Below the pieces are notes generated by a model. That model ran no database searches. It had not been told where the DNA came from and saw only the letters and a list, made by a program, of their open reading frames with translations. Positions 1-21,334 of a DNA stretch of 64,000 nt are shown here, one piece after another; the first letter of the stretch is position 1, and every line of letters begins with the position of its first letter. The position numbers and the translations under genes are program-made. The stretch comes from a virus (lineage: Duplodnaviria; Caudoviricetes). The DNA lies in the IMG/VR virus record IMGVR_UViG_3300008262_000001. The stretch is one strand, 5' to 3'.

Positions 1-367
1 ATTTCTTAGCTTCTTCGTTAGGGATATCAAAAGCATATACCGTTATTTTATTCATTACGTTAAAAACACGGGATCTATTCATTGTAAGATATTCTGGAAA
101 TTTATTTGAAATACATTTTTGGCAAACCTTAAGATAGTAAATTTTATCTTCTATTTTTTTAAAAGTCTTACAAGACGTCACTGTTTTATCATAATACAAA
201 TTACCTTCTTTAGAAACTCTTATTTTCGAATTGTAATAGAATATAGATTCGCCACAATCTTTGCAAAAATGTTTATCATCTATATGATCTTCTAGAAGCC
301 TCCAGTTATTAATATTTGGCTCCTTATTGTATCTTTTTACTAGTGATTTTAAAAATTCTATCCCCAT
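1..367 (-). CDS. Putative free-standing homing endonuclease inside the fractured PolB gene (3' end runs off the window; not in the ORF track)
   Basis: Manual translation from ATG at 367: MGIEFLKSLVKRYNKEPNINNWRLLEDHIDDKHFCKDCGESIF...KVCQKCISNKFPEY..., open to position 1. Two CxxC motifs, directly after the PolB IntN stop, preceded by GATATATAA. No catalytic domain is visible in the window. Confidence 0.6.
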   Translation of the reverse strand, partial: MGIEFLKSLVKRYNKEPNINNWRLLEDHIDDKHFCKDCGESIFYYNSKIRVSKEGNLYYDKTVTSCKTFKKIEDKIYYLKVCQKCISNKFPEYLTMNRSRVFNVMNKITVYAFDIPNEEAKK

Positions 368-385
368 ATAATATTTTTTTATATG

Positions 386-394
386 TTATATATC
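386..394 (-). promoter_or_regulatory. GATATATAA motif (putative late promoter) overlapping the IntN stop, upstream of the endonuclease ORF
   Basis: Plus strand TTATATATC at 386-394; the same motif recurs before many genes. Confidence 0.6.
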
Positions 395-1108
395 AATATC
401 TATAGATAAAATTTTATCAGTATCTAAATTTATTTCGGAAGGCTTAATGTGAATTTTTTTATCATCTCTAAAAACAGTTACTGAATGGTCATTAGTAACT
501 ATAACCTCCTTACCAGATTCCGTAGTTATTTTCCACTTAGGTTTTCTAACTTTATGACGTATTATTTTTTTAATTCCTGAATATTCTATTTTTTCGTTCT
601 TATAATTAGCAGATGAAAATCCTTTGGTTTCTATAATATGATTACCCTTATGATCTACGAAGATCTCCTCGTATTCTGCCAAATTATTAAAAAAATCCTC
701 TATCAAAATCTCCTTTTTTTCTCCTATGTCGTTCATTATCAATAATTTAGACCCAGAAAAAACCGAATCAGTGTCACCGTAGCAAACCATGTCTAGAGTT
801 ATTTTTCTTGCATTTCTGACCTCCATTTTTTCATGAAGCTCAGTGTCAAGATGCCATATCTCATTAAAGTACCTATTGACTATTTTCTCTGCAAATTTCC
901 AAATGTCCTGACCTTGCAAAGTAACACTTTCCGCCACATCTGGATTAAACAACGAGAAGTACTGGTTTCCTAATGCTCCATAGATACTATTGAGCGTAAG
1001 CTTAACTGCTTGTTCTTCGTTATAAAAATCAGATGACTGCTTTTGTAGGGCCTTCAGCTTGTCATTCAACTCTTCTAGCGAGAGTGATTCGTAGTCTTCC
1101 TCTTTCAT
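386..1108 (-). CDS. polB: Family B DNA polymerase middle fragment (fingers helix, motifs B and C) fused to the N-half of a split intein
   Basis: KLTLNSIYG (motif B) and YGDTD (motif C), then SVFSGS... with TNDH (intein block B). The ORF stops after about 126 intein residues with no block F/G. Confidence 0.92.
   Translation of the reverse strand: MKEEDYESLSLEELNDKLKALQKQSSDFYNEEQAVKLTLNSIYGALGNQYFSLFNPDVAESVTLQGQDIWKFAEKIVNRYFNEIWHLDTELHEKMEVRNARKITLDMVCYGDTDSVFSGSKLLIMNDIGEKKEILIEDFFNNLAEYEEIFVDHKGNHIIETKGFSSANYKNEKIEYSGIKKIIRHKVRKPKWKITTESGKEVIVTNDHSVTVFRDDKKIHIKPSEINLDTDKILSIDIDI
389..766 (-). mobile_element. Split intein N-fragment (Ser1) at the PolB YGDTD|S site
   Basis: Starts at Ser115 (TCG 764-766). 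Block A SVFSGSKLL, block B VIVTNDHSV, no C-terminal HN. Confidence 0.85.
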
Positions 1109-1109
1109 T

Positions 1110-1877
1110 TTAAACTTCTACTAAACCTATTGCTATTACTGAATCTGACTGGGTTGATTTAACAAGAATTCTATTTTCGTGAAAATGTATTTCTGACGAT
1201 TCTTGATCAATATAAGAAAACTGGTTCTTGTAAATGGTATAAACACTTGGATTACTAAATCCATTAGGAGTAGATCCTTTGATAATCTGATATTGGAAAG
1301 AATTACCTCTGACAGTTACTCCTGATTCGTGTACATCAAAATGCAAAAGTTCCTCTGAATTTGATTCTATTCCTGTTAAGGATGAGAGTTTTTGGAATGA
1401 CTCGCTTGTGATGGCAAAGTTAATTTCAGATCCCTCTGTAGAGTGTATTTGCCTTTGAATGTTATCATCTATGTAAGCTAAAAGACTTATGTCTGCACAT
1501 TTGATAAAGATATTCAAAGACGAAGAAGAAAACTTTAAGCTCGTAGCAATTAAATCCTTTTCATAAGGTTGGGATTCAATGATTAGGTTGAGTTCTTCTT
1601 CTGGTCCAAAATATTTGAATACGTCAATGAGTTTTCCTATTTCAAGAATTCCTATTTTTAATCTATTAGGAGGTAAATCACCTTCCAATATTTCATTCAG
1701 ATCAACACTGACATATTTAATAACAGATTTATCAGGAGTTCTTACCTTTGCAAAAACATTGCTTCCTTCAATTTCAAGAGGTACACTTTTGTCTACCAAT
1801 TTAAGCTTTTTAAGGAAAGAGATAAAATTAGTAGAGTTTACTATTCTAAAATTCCAGGTTTGTGTTTTTTTACTCAT
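1110..1877 (-). CDS. Probable sliding clamp (gp45/PCNA-like)
   Basis: 255 aa alternating beta/alpha pattern with a PCNA-like N-terminus (FISFLKKLKLVD...IEG..VFAKVRTPD.SVIKY). Lies immediately upstream of the polymerase fragment. Confidence 0.65.
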   Translation of the reverse strand: MSKKTQTWNFRIVNSTNFISFLKKLKLVDKSVPLEIEGSNVFAKVRTPDKSVIKYVSVDLNEILEGDLPPNRLKIGILEIGKLIDVFKYFGPEEELNLIIESQPYEKDLIATSLKFSSSSLNIFIKCADISLLAYIDDNIQRQIHSTEGSEINFAITSESFQKLSSLTGIESNSEELLHFDVHESGVTVRGNSFQYQIIKGSTPNGFSNPSVYTIYKNQFSYIDQESSEIHFHENRILVKSTQSDSVIAIGLVEV

Positions 1878-3189
1878 TTTCTATATTTGTTTCTAATTCT
1901 TGATCCATTTGTGGGTCAATTTCATTTTCAGGATCCCAAATTCTTATTCCGTTATGGAATTCCTCTTTTGTTTCACTCATGAGTGATGTTGTTCTAGAGG
2001 ATTTTTTGGATATTCTCTTGTGTTCTTTCTCTATGTTCAAAACCTTCGATTTTTGAGTTTTGATTTCGAGATTCTTGTTCTTTATATCGGATTTACAAGA
2101 ATTAATTTCCTGCTTTGTTTTTTCTATTTCATCTTTTGTCAATTTAGTCAATGAAATAGATTCAAGCCTTCTTGATATCTCTTTCTTGAAAGGAGCTAAG
2201 AAATCCAGTACTTCTTGTGCTGCTCTCTTTTTTTCCGACATAAAAAGTAGGAATTTTAATTTAGCTTCCAAGAAATCTAATTCGTCCTGAAGATAGACTA
2301 AATCTCTTTCAAACCTTTTTAAAACAGTTTGCTCCTTGTGAACTATAAAGTCTTCCAAATAGTCTTCAATTGAATCATATTCAAGGACGTTTCCGTCCTT
2401 TACAAAAACTATATTTTCAGTTACTATCTGTTTAGTTTCTTTAAGTAGAACTTCACAAACATTTTTAAATTCCTGGTCTGTACATCTAAACTTGATACTG
2501 ATCTTAACTTCCTCTGTTGAAAAATTATCTATTTTGTAATTTAAACCAGTCTTTTCTAAAGCTAAATTCAATCTAGTAAAGAAAGATTCATATCTCTGCA
2601 ATGGTGAAATAGAATCTATTTTAAATGTCCTAGAATTTAAGTCAATTTCTGTCTCTCCTTCAATAAGCCAAGCAGACTTCAGTGAATCAACCCTTGTGAT
2701 TTTACCCTTAAAACCTCTGAAGTATGGCTTGAGTTTTTTGGTCTTATTTCCATCTAAATAGGTAATTAGTTCATCTGGCTTTCTTGGAAGAATATTCGAT
2801 TTGTATCCCACTGCAATTCCCACAATATGTGTGGACAATCCTATAGGATAATCAACATGAATCCAATCAAATCCACCTTCTTCGTTTGGTTGATTTAGAT
2901 CTTTGTATTTTTCAATTATGTCTTTGTACTTGGATGATATTTTAACTTGAGTATACCTTGGGGCTGATGGGGAAGGATTAACTGGGGTTCCAAAAAATCC
3001 ATCACCTAAAAGAATCTGATCAGAACAACCAAAAGGTCTAGCTAATTTGCAAATTGCCTGTGAAAGAGAAGAATTATGACAAACTATTTTGGAATCACCA
3101 ATAATAAAATTATGATAATTTTCAACGGTAATATCATAGAACTTTTCTGGTGAATCTAATTTGATTCTGTTTATTTTTTTAATTTTCAT
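1870..3189 (-). CDS. Split intein C-fragment fused to the C-terminal part of a type II topoisomerase GyrA/ParC/gp52-like subunit
   Basis: First 39 aa are MKIKKINRIKLDSPEKFYDITVENYHNFIIGDSKIVCHN (blocks F/G), followed by +1 Ser. The extein holds GFFG...SAPRYT with the catalytic Tyr. Confidence 0.93.
   Translation of the reverse strand: MKIKKINRIKLDSPEKFYDITVENYHNFIIGDSKIVCHNSSLSQAICKLARPFGCSDQILLGDGFFGTPVNPSPSAPRYTQVKISSKYKDIIEKYKDLNQPNEEGGFDWIHVDYPIGLSTHIVGIAVGYKSNILPRKPDELITYLDGNKTKKLKPYFRGFKGKITRVDSLKSAWLIEGETEIDLNSRTFKIDSISPLQRYESFFTRLNLALEKTGLNYKIDNFSTEEVKISIKFRCTDQEFKNVCEVLLKETKQIVTENIVFVKDGNVLEYDSIEDYLEDFIVHKEQTVLKRFERDLVYLQDELDFLEAKLKFLLFMSEKKRAAQEVLDFLAPFKKEISRRLESISLTKLTKDEIEKTKQEINSCKSDIKNKNLEIKTQKSKVLNIEKEHKRISKKSSRTTSLMSETKEEFHNGIRIWDPENEIDPQMDQELETNIENE
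3073..3189 (-). mobile_element. Split intein C-fragment (39 aa, basic)
   Basis: YDITVENYHNF (block F) and VCHN|S (block G); Lys-rich N-terminus. Confidence 0.92.
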
Positions 3190-4055
3190 TTTTTATAAAC
3201 TATTCTATCAAATTCCTGTATTTCTTTTATTAATTCGCTTATTTCTACTGAACAACTACTATTCTTCTTTGCATTATCGCTGAAATTAATAATCTCTAAA
3301 TTACAGATGTGCCCTATAATTTCTGGAGAGATGTTGTGTTTGAATCCAAAACATCTCGAATACCTGTGATCAATGGTTAACCATTCAGACTGTTGGAGTT
3401 TTCTGGATTCGGTAATTTTTTCCCAAATATCATCACCAAATTTTATTTTAGCATATCTTCTCATTTGACTCCATGTGATGTTGTGAACATTCTCATCATA
3501 AATACTTTTTAAGTCCATCATTTCTTTAGGTGCCCAAAATCCATTCTTTTCCGCAGTAGCCCTTTTTTTGTTTTTAATTTGGTCAACCTTCGAAGGATTA
3601 GTATATCCATATTTTTGTATCCATGTTTCTTTTAATTTATACAAAACATCATTTCTAGCAAAAACATTATCAACGCCATATTTTTGATTCAAAGATTCTA
3701 CCATATTTTTTCTAGCAATCGAGTCTCTTGATAGATTATGATTTGATCCTGTCGATAAAAATGTGCTTTGTTTTTTCATGATTAATGAGCAAGATTCAGA
3801 GCAGCACATACTAAATTTTTCATATTCCTTTTCACATATAAAGCATTTATTTTTATACCTATCTTTATAGCTTTTGAGTGAATTATAAAATTCAGGATAT
3901 TTCTCATAATTTTTTTTCCAAACTTTAAATGGTTTTCCTGTACTTTGTATTTCAAAAAATTTATCCTGTGACTTACACTTTGTGTTGCAATACTTATTAA
4001 GATTTAGCTCGGATTCAAAATCTTTCCCGCAATTCTTACATTTTTTTATCATCAT
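3186..4055 (-). CDS. Free-standing homing endonuclease (HNH/His-Me-like) between the two intein halves
   Basis: Two Cys-rich zinc-finger-like units, KYGVDN/KYGYTN repeats and C-terminal TIDHRYS...NLEII...N.KKN. Its stop overlaps the IntC start as ATGA. Confidence 0.8.
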   Translation of the reverse strand: MMIKKCKNCGKDFESELNLNKYCNTKCKSQDKFFEIQSTGKPFKVWKKNYEKYPEFYNSLKSYKDRYKNKCFICEKEYEKFSMCCSESCSLIMKKQSTFLSTGSNHNLSRDSIARKNMVESLNQKYGVDNVFARNDVLYKLKETWIQKYGYTNPSKVDQIKNKKRATAEKNGFWAPKEMMDLKSIYDENVHNITWSQMRRYAKIKFGDDIWEKITESRKLQQSEWLTIDHRYSRCFGFKHNISPEIIGHICNLEIINFSDNAKKNSSCSVEISELIKEIQEFDRIVYKK

Positions 4056-4602
4056 GGATTTTTACTTTTATATATCCAACGTGATGGTAGAAATCTTTTA
4101 TATCCATTCCTTCCTCAAGATCTTCAGCCTTAATCCATTTTGAATCAACATAAAAGGGATGATTTTTAGTACACTTAATAACCTCACCGGTTTCTAATTC
4201 AATCTCAATTAATTCGTTGGTAATTTGACCGATCCTTGGAGAATGTCCAATCCCGAAAGTTTTTTCACCAGTTTCAGTATCGATACAAGAAACCAATAAA
4301 TCACATTCTGGATTTTTATTATACCAGTCTTCTATTGTAATTTGGTTACCATCTGCTAATTCTATTTTTGTATCCCCTGCAACGCAGTCTCCGTGGTGGT
4401 ATAGCCCTGTCCCAAAAACTTCCCCTATGACGCCAACAGTCTTTTTAAAAGCACCTGGAGAATTTTGTAAAATCAATCTTTGGACTGGAGTTAAGCAATC
4501 GTAGAAATTAGGGATTCCTCTGCTTTGGATAACATAAAGAGCATATTTTCTATAGTCATTATCAATCTGTTCAGAGATAGTTAATGTTTTTTTTGTTTCC
4601 AT
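4036..4602 (-). CDS. Type II topoisomerase GyrA/gp52-like N-terminal 72 aa fused to a split intein N-fragment
   Basis: YALYVIQSRGIP..YDCLTPVQR...YHHGD, then CVAGDTKI (block A) and CTKNHPF (block B); the ORF then ends. Confidence 0.93.
   Translation of the reverse strand: METKKTLTISEQIDNDYRKYALYVIQSRGIPNFYDCLTPVQRLILQNSPGAFKKTVGVIGEVFGTGLYHHGDCVAGDTKIELADGNQITIEDWYNKNPECDLLVSCIDTETGEKTFGIGHSPRIGQITNELIEIELETGEVIKCTKNHPFYVDSKWIKAEDLEEGMDIKDFYHHVGYIKVKIHDDKKM
4039..4386 (-). mobile_element. Split intein N-fragment (Cys1, acidic) at the HHGD|S site
   Basis: Cys73 = TGC at 4384-4386; acidic composition complements the basic IntC. Confidence 0.9.
4068..4076 (-). promoter_or_regulatory. GATATATAA motif 12 nt upstream of the endonuclease ATG, embedded in the IntN coding 3' end
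   Basis: Plus strand TTATATATC at 4068-4076; ATG at 4055. Confidence 0.6.
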
Positions 4603-4683: not shown

Positions 4684-6264
4684 TTATTCTAAGGCTTTAG
4701 TGTTCCTAAATTTGAGTTGTTCTAATTCATCCGAATCGAGAAAAGAATCTAAATCTGACCAAATATTTGATCCGTATTTTTTCTCTAATTTTTTCCAATC
4801 GTCATCAGACTTAATAACACTATTGTACCTTTTGATTGTTTCTTCTTCGTCCGAGTTGTATTTGTCCTTTTCCTCTTGTATGAATTTAGCTAATCCAGCA
4901 ATTTGTCCAGAATTATCTACAATTTCTGAATCTTCGTCACCAGTAGTATCAGTTGTAGTTTCTGTTGATTCTGCCCCAGTTACTCCTTCCTCTCCTGTTG
5001 TTGCAGCAAGAGCAACTTGTTCGGGGCTAATTCCGTTCATAGCGTCTTGTAATACCTTTTCATCGATATCATCAAGTTGAATAAGAGCATAAATGAATTT
5101 ACCTGCATTCATTTGTTCCCTCTCAGCTTTAGAGATAAAGTCTTTGTATTCATCATAGTCTGCAAAAACTTGACATCCAGCAGAGTAAGGGCCAACACAT
5201 ACACCAACACCTTTTGTGGAAGATCTATGGATTTGCATTCCACAGTCCTCAACAAAAACCTCTGCAGGTTTGTATGTTTCGTATCTAGTGACTCCTACTG
5301 GATATCTACCGACTTTGATTTTTTCCCCCTCCACCATCATCTTATATTTCTCATCACCTATTGACGAATCTTTTAAATAGTAGATGGTGTCTCCTGGGAT
5401 TTTGATTCCTGTACCCTTCGGATTTAATGGCTTTTTACCGTAAAATGCTAAACTTGGTACTGTTGTTATTTGGTAAGGAACAAATTTATCACCTAAGTTG
5501 ACATTAGTTGCAGTTGATCCTGCACCCAAAAAAGTAGCACCAGTTGTGCCAGTAGCAGCTGCTGTGGCTGCTCCTGTTACACCTTCAGTTTCACTTATGG
5601 AAAGTTTAGGCAGTGATAGATCCTTAGTGTTGTTAAAAGGATCTTTGTCACTCTCGTTCATTTTGGAAAATAGTTCGAAAGAAAGTACTTTTGATTCTTT
5701 CGGTCCTGTAGATGCAGTAGTATTTAGAGCAACTGGTGCACCAGTTGCTCCTGTTGCTCCAGCCGTAATATCACCTCCATCATCTGCATTTCCAGAAATG
5801 AAATACAAAGCATCAGTAAATCTGTCCTGATTAGCAGAATCTTTTTTGACATTTAATCTGTTTCTGATACCAATAATAACAGCTCTTTTTTCATCAAGCT
5901 CCTTTATTGCTCTAGAATACTCTCCAGCATTTTTATCCTCTAAATGTTTTAAAAGGATCTTAAAGGTTTTAACCGAAATTGGGGTTCTTTCCAATTTGAA
6001 CGGCTCACTGGCGCCACATCCTTTATAAGGTCTTGACTCCTTAACCTCCGGTGTTATTTCAATTGATGAATCAACTGAACCTGTTAATCCTTGGACTCCA
6101 CCAAATAGACCTTTTACTAAATCAGCTGCAATTCTTGATTTTGTTTCTCTTTCAGTTTCTGGTCTTCCTGTTCCACTATCATCAGTTGTGGTGGTAGATC
6201 CAGTTACACCAAAGGTGTCTTCATTTAAGAAATATTCATTGAAGGACAGTACAGATTTCTTCAT
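4684..6264 (-). CDS. Putative peptidoglycan-acting enzyme (YkuD/L,D-transpeptidase-like motif) with GAT repeats and a capsid-targeting-like N-terminus
   Basis: IH-X14-SAGCQVF resembles the YkuD H-X14-17-S/T-x-G-C motif. GATGATGA repeats; N-terminus MKKSVLSFNEYFLNE; GATATATA at 6270-6277. Confidence 0.55.
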   Translation of the reverse strand: MKKSVLSFNEYFLNEDTFGVTGSTTTTDDSGTGRPETERETKSRIAADLVKGLFGGVQGLTGSVDSSIEITPEVKESRPYKGCGASEPFKLERTPISVKTFKILLKHLEDKNAGEYSRAIKELDEKRAVIIGIRNRLNVKKDSANQDRFTDALYFISGNADDGGDITAGATGATGAPVALNTTASTGPKESKVLSFELFSKMNESDKDPFNNTKDLSLPKLSISETEGVTGAATAAATGTTGATFLGAGSTATNVNLGDKFVPYQITTVPSLAFYGKKPLNPKGTGIKIPGDTIYYLKDSSIGDEKYKMMVEGEKIKVGRYPVGVTRYETYKPAEVFVEDCGMQIHRSSTKGVGVCVGPYSAGCQVFADYDEYKDFISKAEREQMNAGKFIYALIQLDDIDEKVLQDAMNGISPEQVALAATTGEEGVTGAESTETTTDTTGDEDSEIVDNSGQIAGLAKFIQEEKDKYNSDEEETIKRYNSVIKSDDDWKKLEKKYGSNIWSDLDSFLDSDELEQLKFRNTKALE

Positions 6265-9772: not shown

Positions 9773-10522
9773 TCAAAAATTCTTAAGAGATTGGATGATT
9801 TTGAATCTTTCTCTTGCGTTGAGATTGTCTAAGTTGTCTTTCCCAGTGGATCTACGCAAAAGCTTTTTAAACTTAGCAGGATCAGAAGTTGCTCCTGCTT
9901 GGGCTGCAAATTCTCTAACATCTCTTCTTGAAGGAACTAAATCAACAACCCAAACTTTAATTGGAATGTTATATTGCAAAGCCAAGTTTATTCTTCTATT
10001 TCCAGAAAACAAATAATAGCTTGATTCAGAGGATGTTCTTGTTTCACCAAAGTTGATAAATCTAATGACTATCGGAGCAGGAAGATTTAAAGATCCATCA
10101 TTTTTAAGATCCTCCGCAATTTTAATTAAAACATCTCCATATGATTTACCGTAAGCTCCTGTGGTTATGTTATCAAATTCAAATGCCATCAAGTTCTGAA
10201 TTTTGTTGACATTAAATTCATCATCTGATATAATAGGAAGATTCTCATAATGACCCTTCTTAAAAGGCTCAGAGATGTATTTATAGAACTTTGTTGCTCT
10301 TGGGCTAACCTTACCTATATCTTTGTTACCGATCGTGATGTTATGCTGATAGAATTCAAGTTTTGCTTTATCATCATAATGATCTATTTCTTCAGCAAGA
10401 TCTGGTTTTTCCCAATTAATAACAAGGTTACCTTGTCCCTTTTGACCACTGAAAACCTTAGGAGATTCTCCTGTGTTTTTTTCTTCTTGTTCGACAACAA
10501 ATTGGTTTAGACGTAAGATCAT
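9773..10522 (-). CDS. ParB/Srx-like domain protein with a tag-like N-terminus
   Basis: LPAPIVI...YLFSGNRRINLA...IPIKVWVV; N-terminus MILRLNQFVVE; GATATATA at 10528-10535. Confidence 0.55.
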   Translation of the reverse strand: MILRLNQFVVEQEEKNTGESPKVFSGQKGQGNLVINWEKPDLAEEIDHYDDKAKLEFYQHNITIGNKDIGKVSPRATKFYKYISEPFKKGHYENLPIISDDEFNVNKIQNLMAFEFDNITTGAYGKSYGDVLIKIAEDLKNDGSLNLPAPIVIRFINFGETRTSSESSYYLFSGNRRINLALQYNIPIKVWVVDLVPSRRDVREFAAQAGATSDPAKFKKLLRRSTGKDNLDNLNARERFKIIQSLKNF

Positions 10523-10547
10523 TTAACTATATATCTTTTTTTCAAAT

Positions 10548-12329
10548 CTAATTTGATAGCCATTTTTTTCTAGCATCAGAGGAATCCCCAAATGCCATTT
10601 CAAGCTTCTCTTTGCTATCAGAACTTTCTTCTATAATCCATAAGGATTTGTCCTTCATAACCCATTCCCAGTCATCCAAAGCTAACGATCCTAATCCTTT
10701 AAGGTATCTTGCCGTTCCGGATGGCTTAGATCTTTTAAACTCGTCTAAATCCCAAAAGTATTTTCTTTTCTTTCCATCACCTATTGACACCAAAGGAATT
10801 CTTAATGAACCTAACCTTTTATTTTTAACGACCATAGGAAACCACTTGTAAAAAAGATTGATCAAAAGAGCTGTTATGTGTGAACCATCTGGGTCGGGGT
10901 CAGTAGCAATTACTATTTTTTTATAGCCAATTATTTCAGAGTTTCTGGAAGTGGGGTCTAATCCCAAAATGTGCATGAGCTCAAGAATCTCCTTGTTGTC
11001 TGATAAATCCCCTATGTTTTTACAATTTTTTATTTTCCCTTTCAGGGCATAGACACCATCTTCCTTAGGATTTCTCTTCTGTAAAATACTTCCCATAGCT
11101 GAAAGTCCTTCAACTATAAATAGATTTTCGGCAACCGATCTTTGAGCAGGAAAATATTTATGAGAATTTTTGATGTTGACCTTTCTTTTCTCTGCTCTAA
11201 GTTTTTTTACGTAGCCATCATTTTTCCTTTCCTCAACTTTCTTTGAAATTCTATCATAAAGAGGGGTTTTAAAAAATGTTTGTAACTTAGAACCAAACTT
11301 CGACATTAAAAGGGATTCAATTTCTTCCCTTGTAGTAACAAATCTTGTTTTATTCTGGTCACCGAACTTAACATATTTAGGTGGCAAGTTTAAGACTATT
11401 AAACAATCATAGAAATGATGCCCTAGAGTGTCTTCCAATCTTTCATTTACAAAATCATTGACTATTTTTTGGTGTATTCCTGAACAAAGGGCAGAATTCA
11501 CAAAACTTAAAGAACCCGATCCTTCATACTTTTCCCAAATTGAAATCTGTCCAATTTCTGTGTTTATTTTAAAAGACTCTTCTGGTAAGAAATCAAGATC
11601 TAGATCTACCTTTTCTTCATCCCAAAAAAGATCGATTGAGAGCTTATCCAATATGGGATCTCTTTTTATTAAATCATATTTTAGAATCAATATTGAGGAA
11701 AGAACTTCCCTATCCCATTTAGATCCGCCAAATACATCAGAAATAGGAATGAACTTCACAGTTGTTCCTGTCTTGGTAGATTCTTTTTTCTTTTCAATAA
11801 CAGGATCATTTGATTCGTAGTTTTTCCATTCTTGATAATAGGAAAATTTGTCATTTGTTGTTGATATGCTAAAATGTTTGGAAAGTACATTGACCAAGGC
11901 TACACCCATTCCATTTGTACCCACTAAAGATTCTTCTACATCATCGTTTTCAAAATTCGATCCAGCTCTTAATTGAGAAACTGCAGTTTCAATATTGCTT
12001 TTACCACTTGTTGAATTAATTTCTGTTCCTTTATAAAAGCCATTTCCTGTATCCTCTACAGAAACTGAATTAGATTTAGTGTCAATCTTGATAAGGATCT
12101 TTTTCATCTTACCTCCCATCCTTTTGGCTTCATCTAATGAATTAGAAAAAACTTCATCGAAAAGTTTATACATTCCAACAGAGATTGACCTTTGTTCTAC
12201 AAAAACCTTATTCTGTTTGATTATGGGAACTTTTTCATCTGTTGGTTTAACACTTCCAACATAGACAGTTGGCCTTAATAAAATGTGATCCCTTTCAGAT
12301 AAAACTCGAATTTCCTTTTTCGAAGACAT
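10548..12329 (-). CDS. Type II topoisomerase ATPase/TOPRIM subunit (GyrB/ParE/gp39+60-like); likely start MSSKK at 12329
   Basis: HILLRPTVYVGS, EVFSNSLDE, GTNGMG (GHKL), LFIVEGLSA, PDPDGSHI, YLKGLGS. Confidence 0.95.
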   Translation of the reverse strand: MSSKKEIRVLSERDHILLRPTVYVGSVKPTDEKVPIIKQNKVFVEQRSISVGMYKLFDEVFSNSLDEAKRMGGKMKKILIKIDTKSNSVSVEDTGNGFYKGTEINSTSGKSNIETAVSQLRAGSNFENDDVEESLVGTNGMGVALVNVLSKHFSISTTNDKFSYYQEWKNYESNDPVIEKKKESTKTGTTVKFIPISDVFGGSKWDREVLSSILILKYDLIKRDPILDKLSIDLFWDEEKVDLDLDFLPEESFKINTEIGQISIWEKYEGSGSLSFVNSALCSGIHQKIVNDFVNERLEDTLGHHFYDCLIVLNLPPKYVKFGDQNKTRFVTTREEIESLLMSKFGSKLQTFFKTPLYDRISKKVEERKNDGYVKKLRAEKRKVNIKNSHKYFPAQRSVAENLFIVEGLSAMGSILQKRNPKEDGVYALKGKIKNCKNIGDLSDNKEILELMHILGLDPTSRNSEIIGYKKIVIATDPDPDGSHITALLINLFYKWFPMVVKNKRLGSLRIPLVSIGDGKKRKYFWDLDEFKRSKPSGTARYLKGLGSLALDDWEWVMKDKSLWIIEESSDSKEKLEMAFGDSSDARKKWLSN

Positions 12330-12518
12330 TAATTGATTCTTTAAGTATTGAAATAAAAATACCTCTGTACCATCCGCACACCTCGTTGTCATCTTCTTTT
12401 TGGAAATGGAAATGATCTAAGTCTATCTCCCTATCGCTCCAATCGGATTCAAACAATGACATTTTTGATCTGCACTGATATACCATAAGATTTTAATACT
12501 TAAAGAAGGAAAAGTTTC

Positions 12519-12899
12519 TTAAAAGTGCCTGTAAATCAAGCCTTCATTGATATTATTCCTTTTGCAAGTTCCTCCCAAAAGTTCCACCACAGTATCAGCA
12601 GAATCACAACTGTATTTTAAACAATCATCAGATAAGCAGGGCTCACAGTTGTGATAAATTTTTTTGACTTTACCCTTTTCTATAAAAAGAATATCTAATG
12701 GAATTTCACAATCTTTCATGTGAAATGATCTATTTGCATTGGCCCCAAAATTAAAAAGCATCCCCTCATTATCGAGGAGATGCTTTCTGTTGGATAGGCC
12801 TTGGGGAAAGTCTTTACATTCTTCTAAAACAAAAGTGTGTTCCCCTATTTTTACTAAATGGAAATCTAAAACTTTATTATCTTCTTGAGAATTTATCAT
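12519..12899 (-). CDS. DUF192-family protein
   Basis: GLSNR..L...EGMLF.F...FHMKDCEIPLDILFI...VVEL.GG. Confidence 0.8.
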   Translation of the reverse strand: MINSQEDNKVLDFHLVKIGEHTFVLEECKDFPQGLSNRKHLLDNEGMLFNFGANANRSFHMKDCEIPLDILFIEKGKVKKIYHNCEPCLSDDCLKYSCDSADTVVELLGGTCKRNNINEGLIYRHF

Positions 12900-19927: not shown

Positions 19928-21334
19928 TTATGATTTTTGTTTAATTAATTTTTTAATTTTTTCTATTTCTTTTTCGCACTCGAAATATTTCTTCTTTGTT
20001 GATTTCCTTTGGTTGTAGAGTCCTTGGAGAATTTCTCTTAGAACTGGTTCTTTACCCTCTTTAGAAAAGAAAACTGCTCCTGATGAGGTTTTGATAGCTC
20101 CCTCCGGGATATTTTGTAGATTCTTTCCCAAATAAATTTCAGGAGATATTCCCCATTGAATCATAGTGTTGGGATAAAGAGAAGCAAAGTCAAAGCATGC
20201 AATCCATTCGTATAAACCCTTGTCTGGCTTTTTAACATATGCACCTTCAAACTTTACGTGTGATTCTTCCTTCTTTTCCGATACAATTACCTTTTTCCTT
20301 TCCAGAAATTTTCTCAACATGAGTACTTCGGTAGTCCAAACGGGAGAAAGGGCTCGACTTATTTCCACTCTACTTACTCCAGCTATTTTAAAAAATGTTG
20401 AAAGAGTATCAAGTCTTTGATCGATATAGTGGACAAGAGCACAGTCAACTGCGTTGTAAAAAATAAACGTTTCAAAATCTGATTCATAAAGATCTTTTAA
20501 TGAACCCTGGTAGTGAATCTTTTTAATTCCAATTGCTTGGGTTGCAACGTAATCCAAAGAGTTTGATTCTCTGATCTTAATGACCCTGTCCCACTTTTTA
20601 TAGATCTCAAGGTAGTCGACCATTAGAATGTGCTGAGGAACTTGGTTTTTACCAAGCAAAACAGAACTAGGTGAACAGATTTTTGGATCAATACCTAACC
20701 TTTTACATCGATTGATTATGTAAGGCCAGTCATATCCAAACCAGTTCCATCCAGTAATCAAAGGCATTTTTGGGACTAGCTTTGACAGGAAAGTGTAAAG
20801 CATGTCAAATTCAGATTCGAATTTCCTGTAGTTGAAAGTCCAATCCCCTTTTTGACCGTTAAAGTGGTCTTTGATTCTTTTTTCGATAGTAAGGATCCTG
20901 TCTGGGCTCATGTCCTCAAGTCCCATGACCAAAATTTTTCCATGCGACGAAGCCATACCAACTGATAGGATTCTATTTTTAGCATTCTCTGTGTCTAATG
21001 AATCCGCCCGATTATCTGTGATTTCAACCTCAATATCCACAAAGTACTTCTTGGGAGTTTGGTAATCCCAAAAAGGTTTTGTGACCTGGGGGTCAAAAGA
21101 TTCCAGGATCTCCATTATTCTAAGTCGATCCAATTTATATGTTCCGTGTTTCTTAACTGGATATCCGTCCCATGATTCCCATTCTTTATCTCTGTTTTTA
21201 TCTGATGCAGAAGTTTTTTGCCAAACGAACTGCTGGGATTTTGGAATTGGTATTTTAATGATGTTAACTTCTCCTTCTTCTGTGTAGTGCGAAACGGAAA
21301 GGGAAGATCCTGAACTTTCAATATCAATGATCAT
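19928..21334 (-). CDS. polB: Family B DNA polymerase N-terminal subunit (3'-5' exonuclease, motif A, first fingers helix)
   Basis: FVDIE (ExoI), GWNWFGYDWPY (ExoII), YNAVD (ExoIII), FDFASLYP (motif A). Ends after RKSTKKKY without motifs B/C. Confidence 0.93.
   Translation of the reverse strand: MIIDIESSGSSLSVSHYTEEGEVNIIKIPIPKSQQFVWQKTSASDKNRDKEWESWDGYPVKKHGTYKLDRLRIMEILESFDPQVTKPFWDYQTPKKYFVDIEVEITDNRADSLDTENAKNRILSVGMASSHGKILVMGLEDMSPDRILTIEKRIKDHFNGQKGDWTFNYRKFESEFDMLYTFLSKLVPKMPLITGWNWFGYDWPYIINRCKRLGIDPKICSPSSVLLGKNQVPQHILMVDYLEIYKKWDRVIKIRESNSLDYVATQAIGIKKIHYQGSLKDLYESDFETFIFYNAVDCALVHYIDQRLDTLSTFFKIAGVSRVEISRALSPVWTTEVLMLRKFLERKKVIVSEKKEESHVKFEGAYVKKPDKGLYEWIACFDFASLYPNTMIQWGISPEIYLGKNLQNIPEGAIKTSSGAVFFSKEGKEPVLREILQGLYNQRKSTKKKYFECEKEIEKIKKLIKQKS

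Follow-up and report, generated by a model that had tools for sequence, protein, structure and literature searches.

How could a phage assemble a working family-B DNA polymerase (PolB) from a gene that runs into an intein fragment directly after the catalytic motif C? This question is raised by the IMG/VR record IMGVR_UViG_3300008262_000001, a stretch of 64,000 nucleotides of tailed-phage DNA (Caudoviricetes; hereafter "the window", meaning this whole stretch), in which an open reading frame (ORF) encoding a piece of PolB continues into the N-terminal half of an intein (IntN), stops, and is followed by an endonuclease-like ORF that leaves the window at position 1. The sequence past the window edge, the state of the insertion site in relatives and the comparison with described systems indicate that this is very probably a fractured PolB gene, in which a mini-intein at YGDTD|S was later split by a Vsr-like endonuclease gene; the two polymerase pieces are predicted to be joined by trans-splicing. 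The layout is real and is probably functional.

The IntN-bearing polymerase gene

The ORF at 386..1108 (minus strand) encodes 240 amino acids and ends with a TAA stop codon at 386..388. Its product matched the Pfam families DNA_pol_B (PF00136, positions 142-257 of 453, E value 2.8e-14) and Intein_splicing (positions 14-87 of 155, E value 3.7e-9). Residues 4-132 correspond to residues 528-640 of RB69 gp43, from motif B through motif C, the piece beginning at about RB69 residue 525. The N-extein (767..1108, minus strand; 114 residues), equivalent to gp43B1 of an Aeromonas phage, is a palm piece with motif B (K-x3-NSxYG) and motif C (YGDTD, residues 110-114). The next 126 residues, beginning S-V-F-S-G-S, form the IntN (389..766, minus strand; PF14890), which has Ser1, an NX motif (R184-H185), block B (T205-x-D207-H208) and no cysteines, and for which the best PDB match was the Aes123 PolB1 intein (9hth_A, E value 1.5e-9).

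This ORF corresponds exactly to the about 126 residues of intein N-half, starting SVFSGS after YGDTD and followed by a stop, that had been reported in a preliminary description of the locus made from the sequence alone. The intein half had been taken to end at TNDH, but this sequence is block B and a further 32 residues precede the TAA codon. The CxxC-containing ORF described as starting 19 nt later and leaving the window was also found, with a spacer of 18 nt and an ATG codon beginning at the 19th nucleotide. Only about 35 residues separate the start of the 240-residue ORF from motif B, and the ORF directly follows the sliding-clamp gene; it must therefore encode the middle piece of the polymerase. 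An exact copy of the 240-residue protein was indexed in 41 blocks of a public collection.

The sequence past the window edge

An exact search of viral contigs with 60 nt from the window edge yielded no match, and the flank was recovered by exact look-up of the 240-residue protein. Window positions 1-1200 were 100% identical to three contigs from different assemblies (one from NCBI and two from JGI). They were also covered, with no differences, by contigs of sequencing runs from four studies (lake and freshwater metagenomes, 2017-2024), two of which bridged the stop/start junction between the IntN and endonuclease ORFs; this comparison is based on contigs rather than raw reads, and minor variants could escape it. 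In L012, one of the contigs identical to the window, the IntN piece, the endonuclease and the piece bearing the C-terminal intein half (IntC) are encoded on the same strand, at 10001-10723, 10742-11884 and 11869-12852, respectively.

The IntC-PolB gene (product P0002, 327 residues) begins 761 nt past window position 1 and is overlapped by 16 nt by the 3' end of the endonuclease gene, the two genes being in different frames. P0002 consists of a 52-residue IntC ending L-V-H-N, with an isoelectric point (pI) of 4.1 and PolB16 OarG as its best PDB sequence match (E value 4e-5), followed by S-N-Y-I-N-L-G-A-V-M-D-S and the thumb, with a C-terminal tail. [quoted passage not shown] The IntC was expected to be short and basic and to end in HN: it does end in VHN, but it is acidic and comprises 52 residues. 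With the IntC piece present and none of the contigs carrying a frameshift that joins the ORFs, the two observations named in the preliminary description as fatal to it were not made; within the limits of contig data, both misassembly and a frameshift error are excluded.

The insertion site in related phages

In 10 related IMG/VR contigs, the site lies within one uninterrupted gene of 389-391 codons, in which it reads YGDTD|SNYINLGAVMDS (YGDTD|SNYINLG). The gene order common to these contigs is membrane protein, lysin-like protein, topoisomerase subunit, 255-residue protein and PolB C-half. The exteins of the window (114 + 275 = 389 residues) are 87% identical to the intein-less 389-residue gene of one of them (L002), and overall 87-93% identical to those of relatives. 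The agreement between the length of the intein-less 389-residue genes and the sum of the exteins indicates that the insertion is exact, with Ser115 as intein residue 1 and Ser53 of P0002 as residue +1.

Several of the proteins matching the IntC are 549-568 residues long, with a contiguous intein of 175-178 residues at the same site. When placed end to end, the IntN and IntC (178 residues) aligned almost without gaps with the three contiguous inteins compared (P0251, P0262 and P0267), with 57-62% identity, and this colinearity with contiguous mini-inteins places the break at the usual endonuclease-insertion loop. Among related phages the site thus exists in three forms: empty, with a contiguous mini-intein, and with a split intein plus endonuclease.

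Two further relatives had other arrangements. In L017 (3346-6665), a relative with a cis mini-intein, the clamp and polymerase genes are separated by a 518-residue ORF on the other strand, which, with DUF7487 and a faint match to Vsr, looks like a free-standing endonuclease beside, not inside, the intein. L019 (2485-5323) comes from a freshwater phage that is more distantly related; its polymerase piece with the IntN has only 165 residues, starting after motif B, and is followed by an endonuclease of the same family (40% identity) and a 409-residue IntC-thumb gene; this polymerase may have an additional break.

Intein class and splicing residues

Searches with the IntN region recovered at least 226 protein clusters (90% identity); among the 120 clusters listed, most had both PolB and intein Pfam domains and a few an intein domain alone. 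The IntC search recovered 58 clusters. Residues S115 (Ser1), R184, H185, T205, D207 and H208 were invariant in 36 IntN homologues, and the V-Y-D of block F, L49, V50, H51, N52 and S53 were invariant in 31 IntC homologues. The intein has the features of class 1: Ser1 directly after the N-extein, a T-x-x-H block B (T205-N-D-H208), and, in blocks F and G, the penultimate His and terminal Asn, followed by Ser+1. The His of its NX motif is preceded by Arg (R184-H185), in accordance with the R/K-H form reported as specific to Ser1 inteins (PMC10189870).

The two halves are encoded by separate ORFs and are colinear with one contiguous intein, as in a split HINT domain, and their association is consistent with a model of the complex. 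The prediction for the IntN (residues 110-240) with the IntC (residues 1-60) scored 0.83, versus 0.00 for the best control, and passed a mark attained in 58 of 80 cases for solved complexes and in 2 of 110 for mismatched pairs, own alignments being used. At least 91% of contacts were common to the runs, and the predicted local distance difference test (pLDDT) value for the partner was at least 73.

The endonuclease gene between the halves

The window contains the first 122 codons of the endonuclease gene (2..367, minus strand; open at the window edge), which encode an N-terminal module resembling a zinc ribbon (CxxC...CxxC). The full product (P0001), read from L012, comprises 380 residues, with helical repeats and a nuclease domain beyond the window. 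In BLASTP comparisons it was 33% identical to the Aes123 "putative VSR endonuclease" (E value 3e-37) and 28% identical to the "VSR endonuclease" of Tenacibaculum phage PTm1 (E value 9e-25), and some of its 203 homologues were named very-short-patch-repair endonuclease (JGI) or had DUF559/MTES_1575. Searches of Pfam and of PDB sequences gave no meaningful match, the likeness to I-Bth0305I was not detectable by phmmer, and Foldseek with the whole model gave no match at an E value of 0.001 or below.

The AlphaFold model of P0001 (pLDDT 89) was compared by VIA-align with the Escherichia coli Vsr endonuclease (1CW0) and with I-Bth0305I (3R3P; PMC3239194). Its C-terminal 138 residues (243-380) have the same fold as both: Z was 11.9 for 1cw0_A (root-mean-square deviation 3.0, 118 residues aligned) and 9.7 for 3r3p_A (95 of 97 residues aligned). 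Invariant Asp, Glu and His residues of P0001 lie in a D..E..G...H pattern, D291, E302, G305 and H309 being invariant in 50 homologues, among which C35, C38, C82 and C85 are near-invariant. I-Bth0305I differs in being intron-encoded, in recA, and in its N-terminal DNA-binding part. The ORF, previously called only endonuclease-like, is thus a predicted Vsr-like (EDxHD-type) homing endonuclease, as judged from BLASTP matches and fold, and it is a free-standing ORF between the IntN and IntC genes, on the same strand, as in fractured genes.

Proposed mechanism and alternative explanations

We suggest that a class-1 mini-intein invaded the C-terminal polymerase half at the catalytic YGDTD|S site and that a free-standing Vsr-like endonuclease gene then split the intein at the endonuclease-insertion loop. 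The IntN and IntC would associate, a basic stretch of the IntN being predicted to pack on the acidic IntC. Ser1 would then undergo an N-O acyl shift, aided by the His of block B and the R-H of the NX motif, attack by Ser+1 would give a branched ester, and Asn52 would cyclise. The expected product is a 389-residue polymerase C-half with an intact YGDTDS, which would work non-covalently with the separate N-half, in the manner of the split gp43A/gp43B of Aeromonas phages. The endonuclease, probably expressed from its own promoter-like motif (GATATATAA) in the 3' end of the IntN sequence, would cut the intein-less alleles of co-infecting relatives, spreading the cassette by homing.

Several points weigh against this reading. 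Trans-splicing, cleavage and expression of the element are predictions from sequence and model, and the genes downstream of the IntN piece were read from contigs identical to the window rather than from the window itself. The complex model may have passed through memory of, or likeness to, solved split inteins. In the endonuclease, the fourth catalytic acidic residue (Asp97 in Vsr) has only candidate counterparts, such as the near-invariant E357 and D359. Finally, the ratios of nonsynonymous to synonymous substitution rates (dN/dS) across L012 and the related contigs L022 and L023 (0.14-0.24 for the endonuclease, 0.16-0.32 for the IntN and 0.006-0.03 for the IntC) are rough, with dS near or beyond saturation; for the exteins dS was saturated and no dN/dS was computed. 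All the parts with a computed value nevertheless look selected rather than decaying.

The alternative that survives best is that the intein halves no longer splice and act only as a non-covalent dimerisation module for the two polymerase pieces, comparable with the interaction domains of mobile-element origin in the NrdA fragments of phage Aeh1. There is documented precedent for phage replication enzymes that assemble non-covalently from fragments (PMC3045599), the polymerase studied here already needs such assembly with its separate N-half, and the natural Aes123 intein splices only to about 30% in vitro (PMC11923092). However, the invariance of all the chemistry residues in dozens of homologues would be unexpected if only binding mattered, and an unspliced protein would retain about 178 intein residues inside motif C, beside the catalytic aspartates, which makes this explanation unlikely.

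We consider it less likely still that the gene is a decaying pseudogene, with the C-half inactivated by a selfish insertion and replication performed by another polymerase. The gene is certainly in pieces, and a second polymerase might be encoded elsewhere in the genome, beyond the 64-kb window, but the only other PolB match within the window is the complementary N-half. Moreover, the ORFs are intact and tightly packed (18-nt spacer and 16-nt overlap), the dN/dS values are well below 1 in every part for which one was computed, the exteins are 87-93% identical to those of relatives, and the layout persists across lineages with endonucleases 60-79% identical and in the cultured, viable phages Aes123 and PTm1. 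An artefact, in which sequencing or assembly errors broke a contiguous intein with an internal endonuclease domain, as the common frame of the IntN and endonuclease ORFs in the window might suggest, is scarcely credible given the same sequence in three assemblies and in contigs from four studies, the TAA codon kept in L022 and L023 despite a 17-nt spacer and differing frames, the different frames and 16-nt overlap of the endonuclease and IntC genes, and the presence of the same separate genes in Aes123 and PTm1.

Comparison with known systems

The trans-splicing fractured gene that we favour has close counterparts, and the novelty implied by the preliminary description was overstated: the Aes123 PolB1 family has been published, solved and engineered (PMC11923092, PMC10189870). 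With the same PolB motif C site and a homologous intein and endonuclease, the element is best described as one more member of that family, not as a new kind. The Aes123 locus of T4-like Aeromonas salmonicida phages (GenBank JN377899) encodes gp43A, gp43B1 with an N-intein, a putative VSR endonuclease and gp43B2 with a C-intein; its PolB1 intein trans-splices in vitro, has been engineered into CL and CLm, and has a crystal structure (9HTH; PMC11923092, PMC10189870). The host gene, the DTD|S site, Ser1/Ser+1 and the gene order, including a separate N-half, are the same in both, with identities of 35% for the IntN, 54% for the IntC and 33% for the endonuclease. They differ in the lengths of the IntN (126 residues here versus 120) and IntC (52 versus 39), in the extra CxxC...CxxC of the endonuclease described here, in the position of the N-half (19 kb away here, adjacent in Aes123) and in the host phage, which is a freshwater relative of the Lak/huge phages, not a Tequatrovirus.

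The closest cultured example is that of Tenacibaculum phages PTm1 and PTm5 (AP019524), annotated as "intein-containing split DNA polymerase precursor", "VSR endonuclease" and "DNA polymerase". In PTm1, too, the polymerase is in three pieces, the N-half being encoded a few genes from the others, and the PTm1 intein is 50% (IntN) and 60% (IntC) identical to the one described here. In contrast to the 18-nt spacer of the window, a gap of 247 nt precedes the PTm1 endonuclease, which has 261 residues and lacks the zinc-ribbon N-terminus. A jumbo-phage review mentioning PTm1 makes no mention of its split polymerase.

The fractured genes described by Dassa et al. in 2009 (PMC2677866) have split-intein halves on two gene pieces and a free-standing endonuclease gene between them; the gene-breaking model of these authors places the intein first and the endonuclease invasion second. 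The element described here resembles them in this defining layout, in its Vsr-like endonuclease and in its origin from environmental phage-like DNA, but their list (gp41 helicase, IMPDH, DnaE, NrdA, NrdJ, DNA ligase and terminase) does not include PolB, and the Nanoarchaeum equitans PolB is given there only as split by an intein. The PolB16 OarG split intein, from a sheep gut metagenome (PDB 8CPN/8CPO; PMC10189870), is likewise hosted by PolB, with a native N-extein ending GDTD, Ser1/Ser+1 and an NX His after Arg/Lys, but it is atypically split (IntN of 15 and IntC of 168 residues), whereas the break here is at the classical endonuclease loop (126 + 52).

The element itself adds little new biology and is common in lake phages. 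The natural series of empty, contiguous and split alleles fits the model of Dassa et al., and a neighbouring topoisomerase gene, described below, adds a split form without endonuclease. The intein is a further split intein from a mesophilic source, with Ser at both splice junctions and a cysteine-free IntN, and should be of use to groups screening such inteins.

The neighbouring topoisomerase intein

A gene encoding a GyrA-like topoisomerase II subunit (1870..4602, minus strand) is also fractured. A 188-residue piece ending HHGD is followed by an IntN of 116 residues with Cys1 (pI 4.75), an endonuclease of 289 residues (DUF7487, "homing endonuclease" PHROGs and, by eye, an HNH-like D-H...N motif) and an IntC of 39 residues (pI 8.9) ending CHN|SS. 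In L001 and L002, a single uninterrupted topoisomerase gene of 471 codons reads YHHGD|SS. The endonucleases of the polymerase and topoisomerase loci showed no significant similarity, and paralogy between them was rejected; one replication module holds two different fractured genes with unrelated endonuclease families.

L023 (1-1505) keeps its polymerase endonuclease, while its topoisomerase split intein lacks one. The topoisomerase IntN ORF, with ...HHVGYKK at its end, shares 4 nt with the next ORF, which starts with the IntC (MKIKKINRIKLD...). This topoisomerase intein is a split intein that has either lost its endonuclease or has yet to gain one. In L022 (186-1499), the IntC-bearing topoisomerase piece is present as two ORFs (274 and 141 residues) versus one of 439 residues, which may reflect a further break or an assembly error.

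The polymerase IntN has a pI of 6.5, with a basic interface-forming stretch, and is paired with an acidic IntC, whereas the topoisomerase intein has an acidic IntN and a basic IntC. In forced global alignments of the polymerase and topoisomerase halves, identities were found at 29 of 100 positions for the IntN and 12 of 39 for the IntC. Cross-reaction is unlikely, given that the two inteins differ in nucleophile, have few identities and are opposite in charge polarity, and the requirement for two essential enzymes to assemble correctly in one cell also argues for orthogonality. We tentatively propose that the polymerase (Ser1/Ser+1) and topoisomerase (Cys1/Ser+1) inteins may have naturally co-evolved as a mutually orthogonal pair in which the charge polarity is inverted, a possibility to which we give slightly less than even weight. 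If so, two trans-splicing reactions would proceed independently within the same phage-infected cell, and the pair could be used for one-pot multi-segment ligation. Orthogonal split-intein sets already exist (PMC7090010 and, for PolB16 versus CL, PMC10189870).

The spacer and a promoter-like motif

The spacer between the IntN stop codon and the endonuclease start codon (368..385, minus strand; 18 nt) contains only A and T. Immediately upstream, at 386..394 (minus strand), is the 9-mer GATATATAA, the last three bases of which are the IntN stop codon TAA (386..388). The motif occupies an equivalent position in L012, L022 and L023, the endonucleases of which are 60-79% identical, and it also precedes the topoisomerase endonuclease. 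The minus strand of the window has 11 copies of GATATATA, 10 of which lie no more than 60 nt upstream of an ORF start, and no obvious Shine-Dalgarno-like sequences were found upstream of the window genes. We infer that GATATATAA is a promoter-like element driving the endonuclease; the overlap of this element with the IntN stop codon offers a clue to the expression of the endonuclease.

Minus-strand copies of GATATATA(A) were found, for example, at 386..394, at about 4070 and upstream of the ORFs starting at 6264, 10522, 18335, 19362, 29559, 33355 and 45778. They precede replication genes and virion-type genes alike, and the sequence is likely to be a phage promoter element.

The IntN and endonuclease ORFs are in one frame in the window, with a single TAA codon between them. 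In both L022 and L023 the spacer is 17 nt long, and the shared frame can thus be attributed to chance; read-through, or a recently broken IntN-endonuclease fusion, was rejected on the same grounds.

The polymerase N-half, the sliding clamp and phage affiliation

The polymerase, treated as two pieces in the preliminary description, is encoded by three genes. Its N-terminal half, equivalent to gp43A, lies about 19 kb upstream (19928..21334, minus strand; 468 residues) and was found by tblastn with the PTm1 N-half. It contains the 3'-5' exonuclease and motif A (PF03104, and PF00136 positions 16-147) and aligns with T4 gp43 residues 185-501. The break between the N-half and the middle piece is in the fingers region and is present in all the relatives examined, in PTm1 and in Aes123. 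The exonuclease/motif A half and the motif B/C/thumb half are therefore in separate genes, as in the split gp43 (43A/43B) of T4-like phages.

The gene preceding the middle piece (1110..1877, minus strand) encodes a sliding clamp of 255 residues with a two-domain PCNA/gp45-type fold. This protein had no Pfam or PHROG match, but its AlphaFold model (pLDDT 87.7) matched PCNA and beta-clamps in Foldseek (E values of about 1e-11, template-modelling scores of about 0.7). The middle-piece gene starts 2 nt past the clamp stop codon.

The closest database relatives of the N-half are the "uncultured phage" genomes LR756500-LR756504 (462-735 kb) and Prevotella Lak megaphages, with 31-39% identity. The 240-residue protein also matched LR756500.1 and Lak genomes over most of its length, including the intein part. 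These matches point to a phage of the broad Lak/"huge phage" group, possibly with a Bacteroidota host, and the source of the window is best described as a freshwater T4-like jumbo phage related to that group. In two relatives (L002, 12732-13793; L001, 12712-13650), a protein resembling HExxH peptidases, encoded downstream of an AAA+ ATPase, has a long tandem PGDQ array; the array of L001 also contains PGEEGD, the repeats being of four to six residues.

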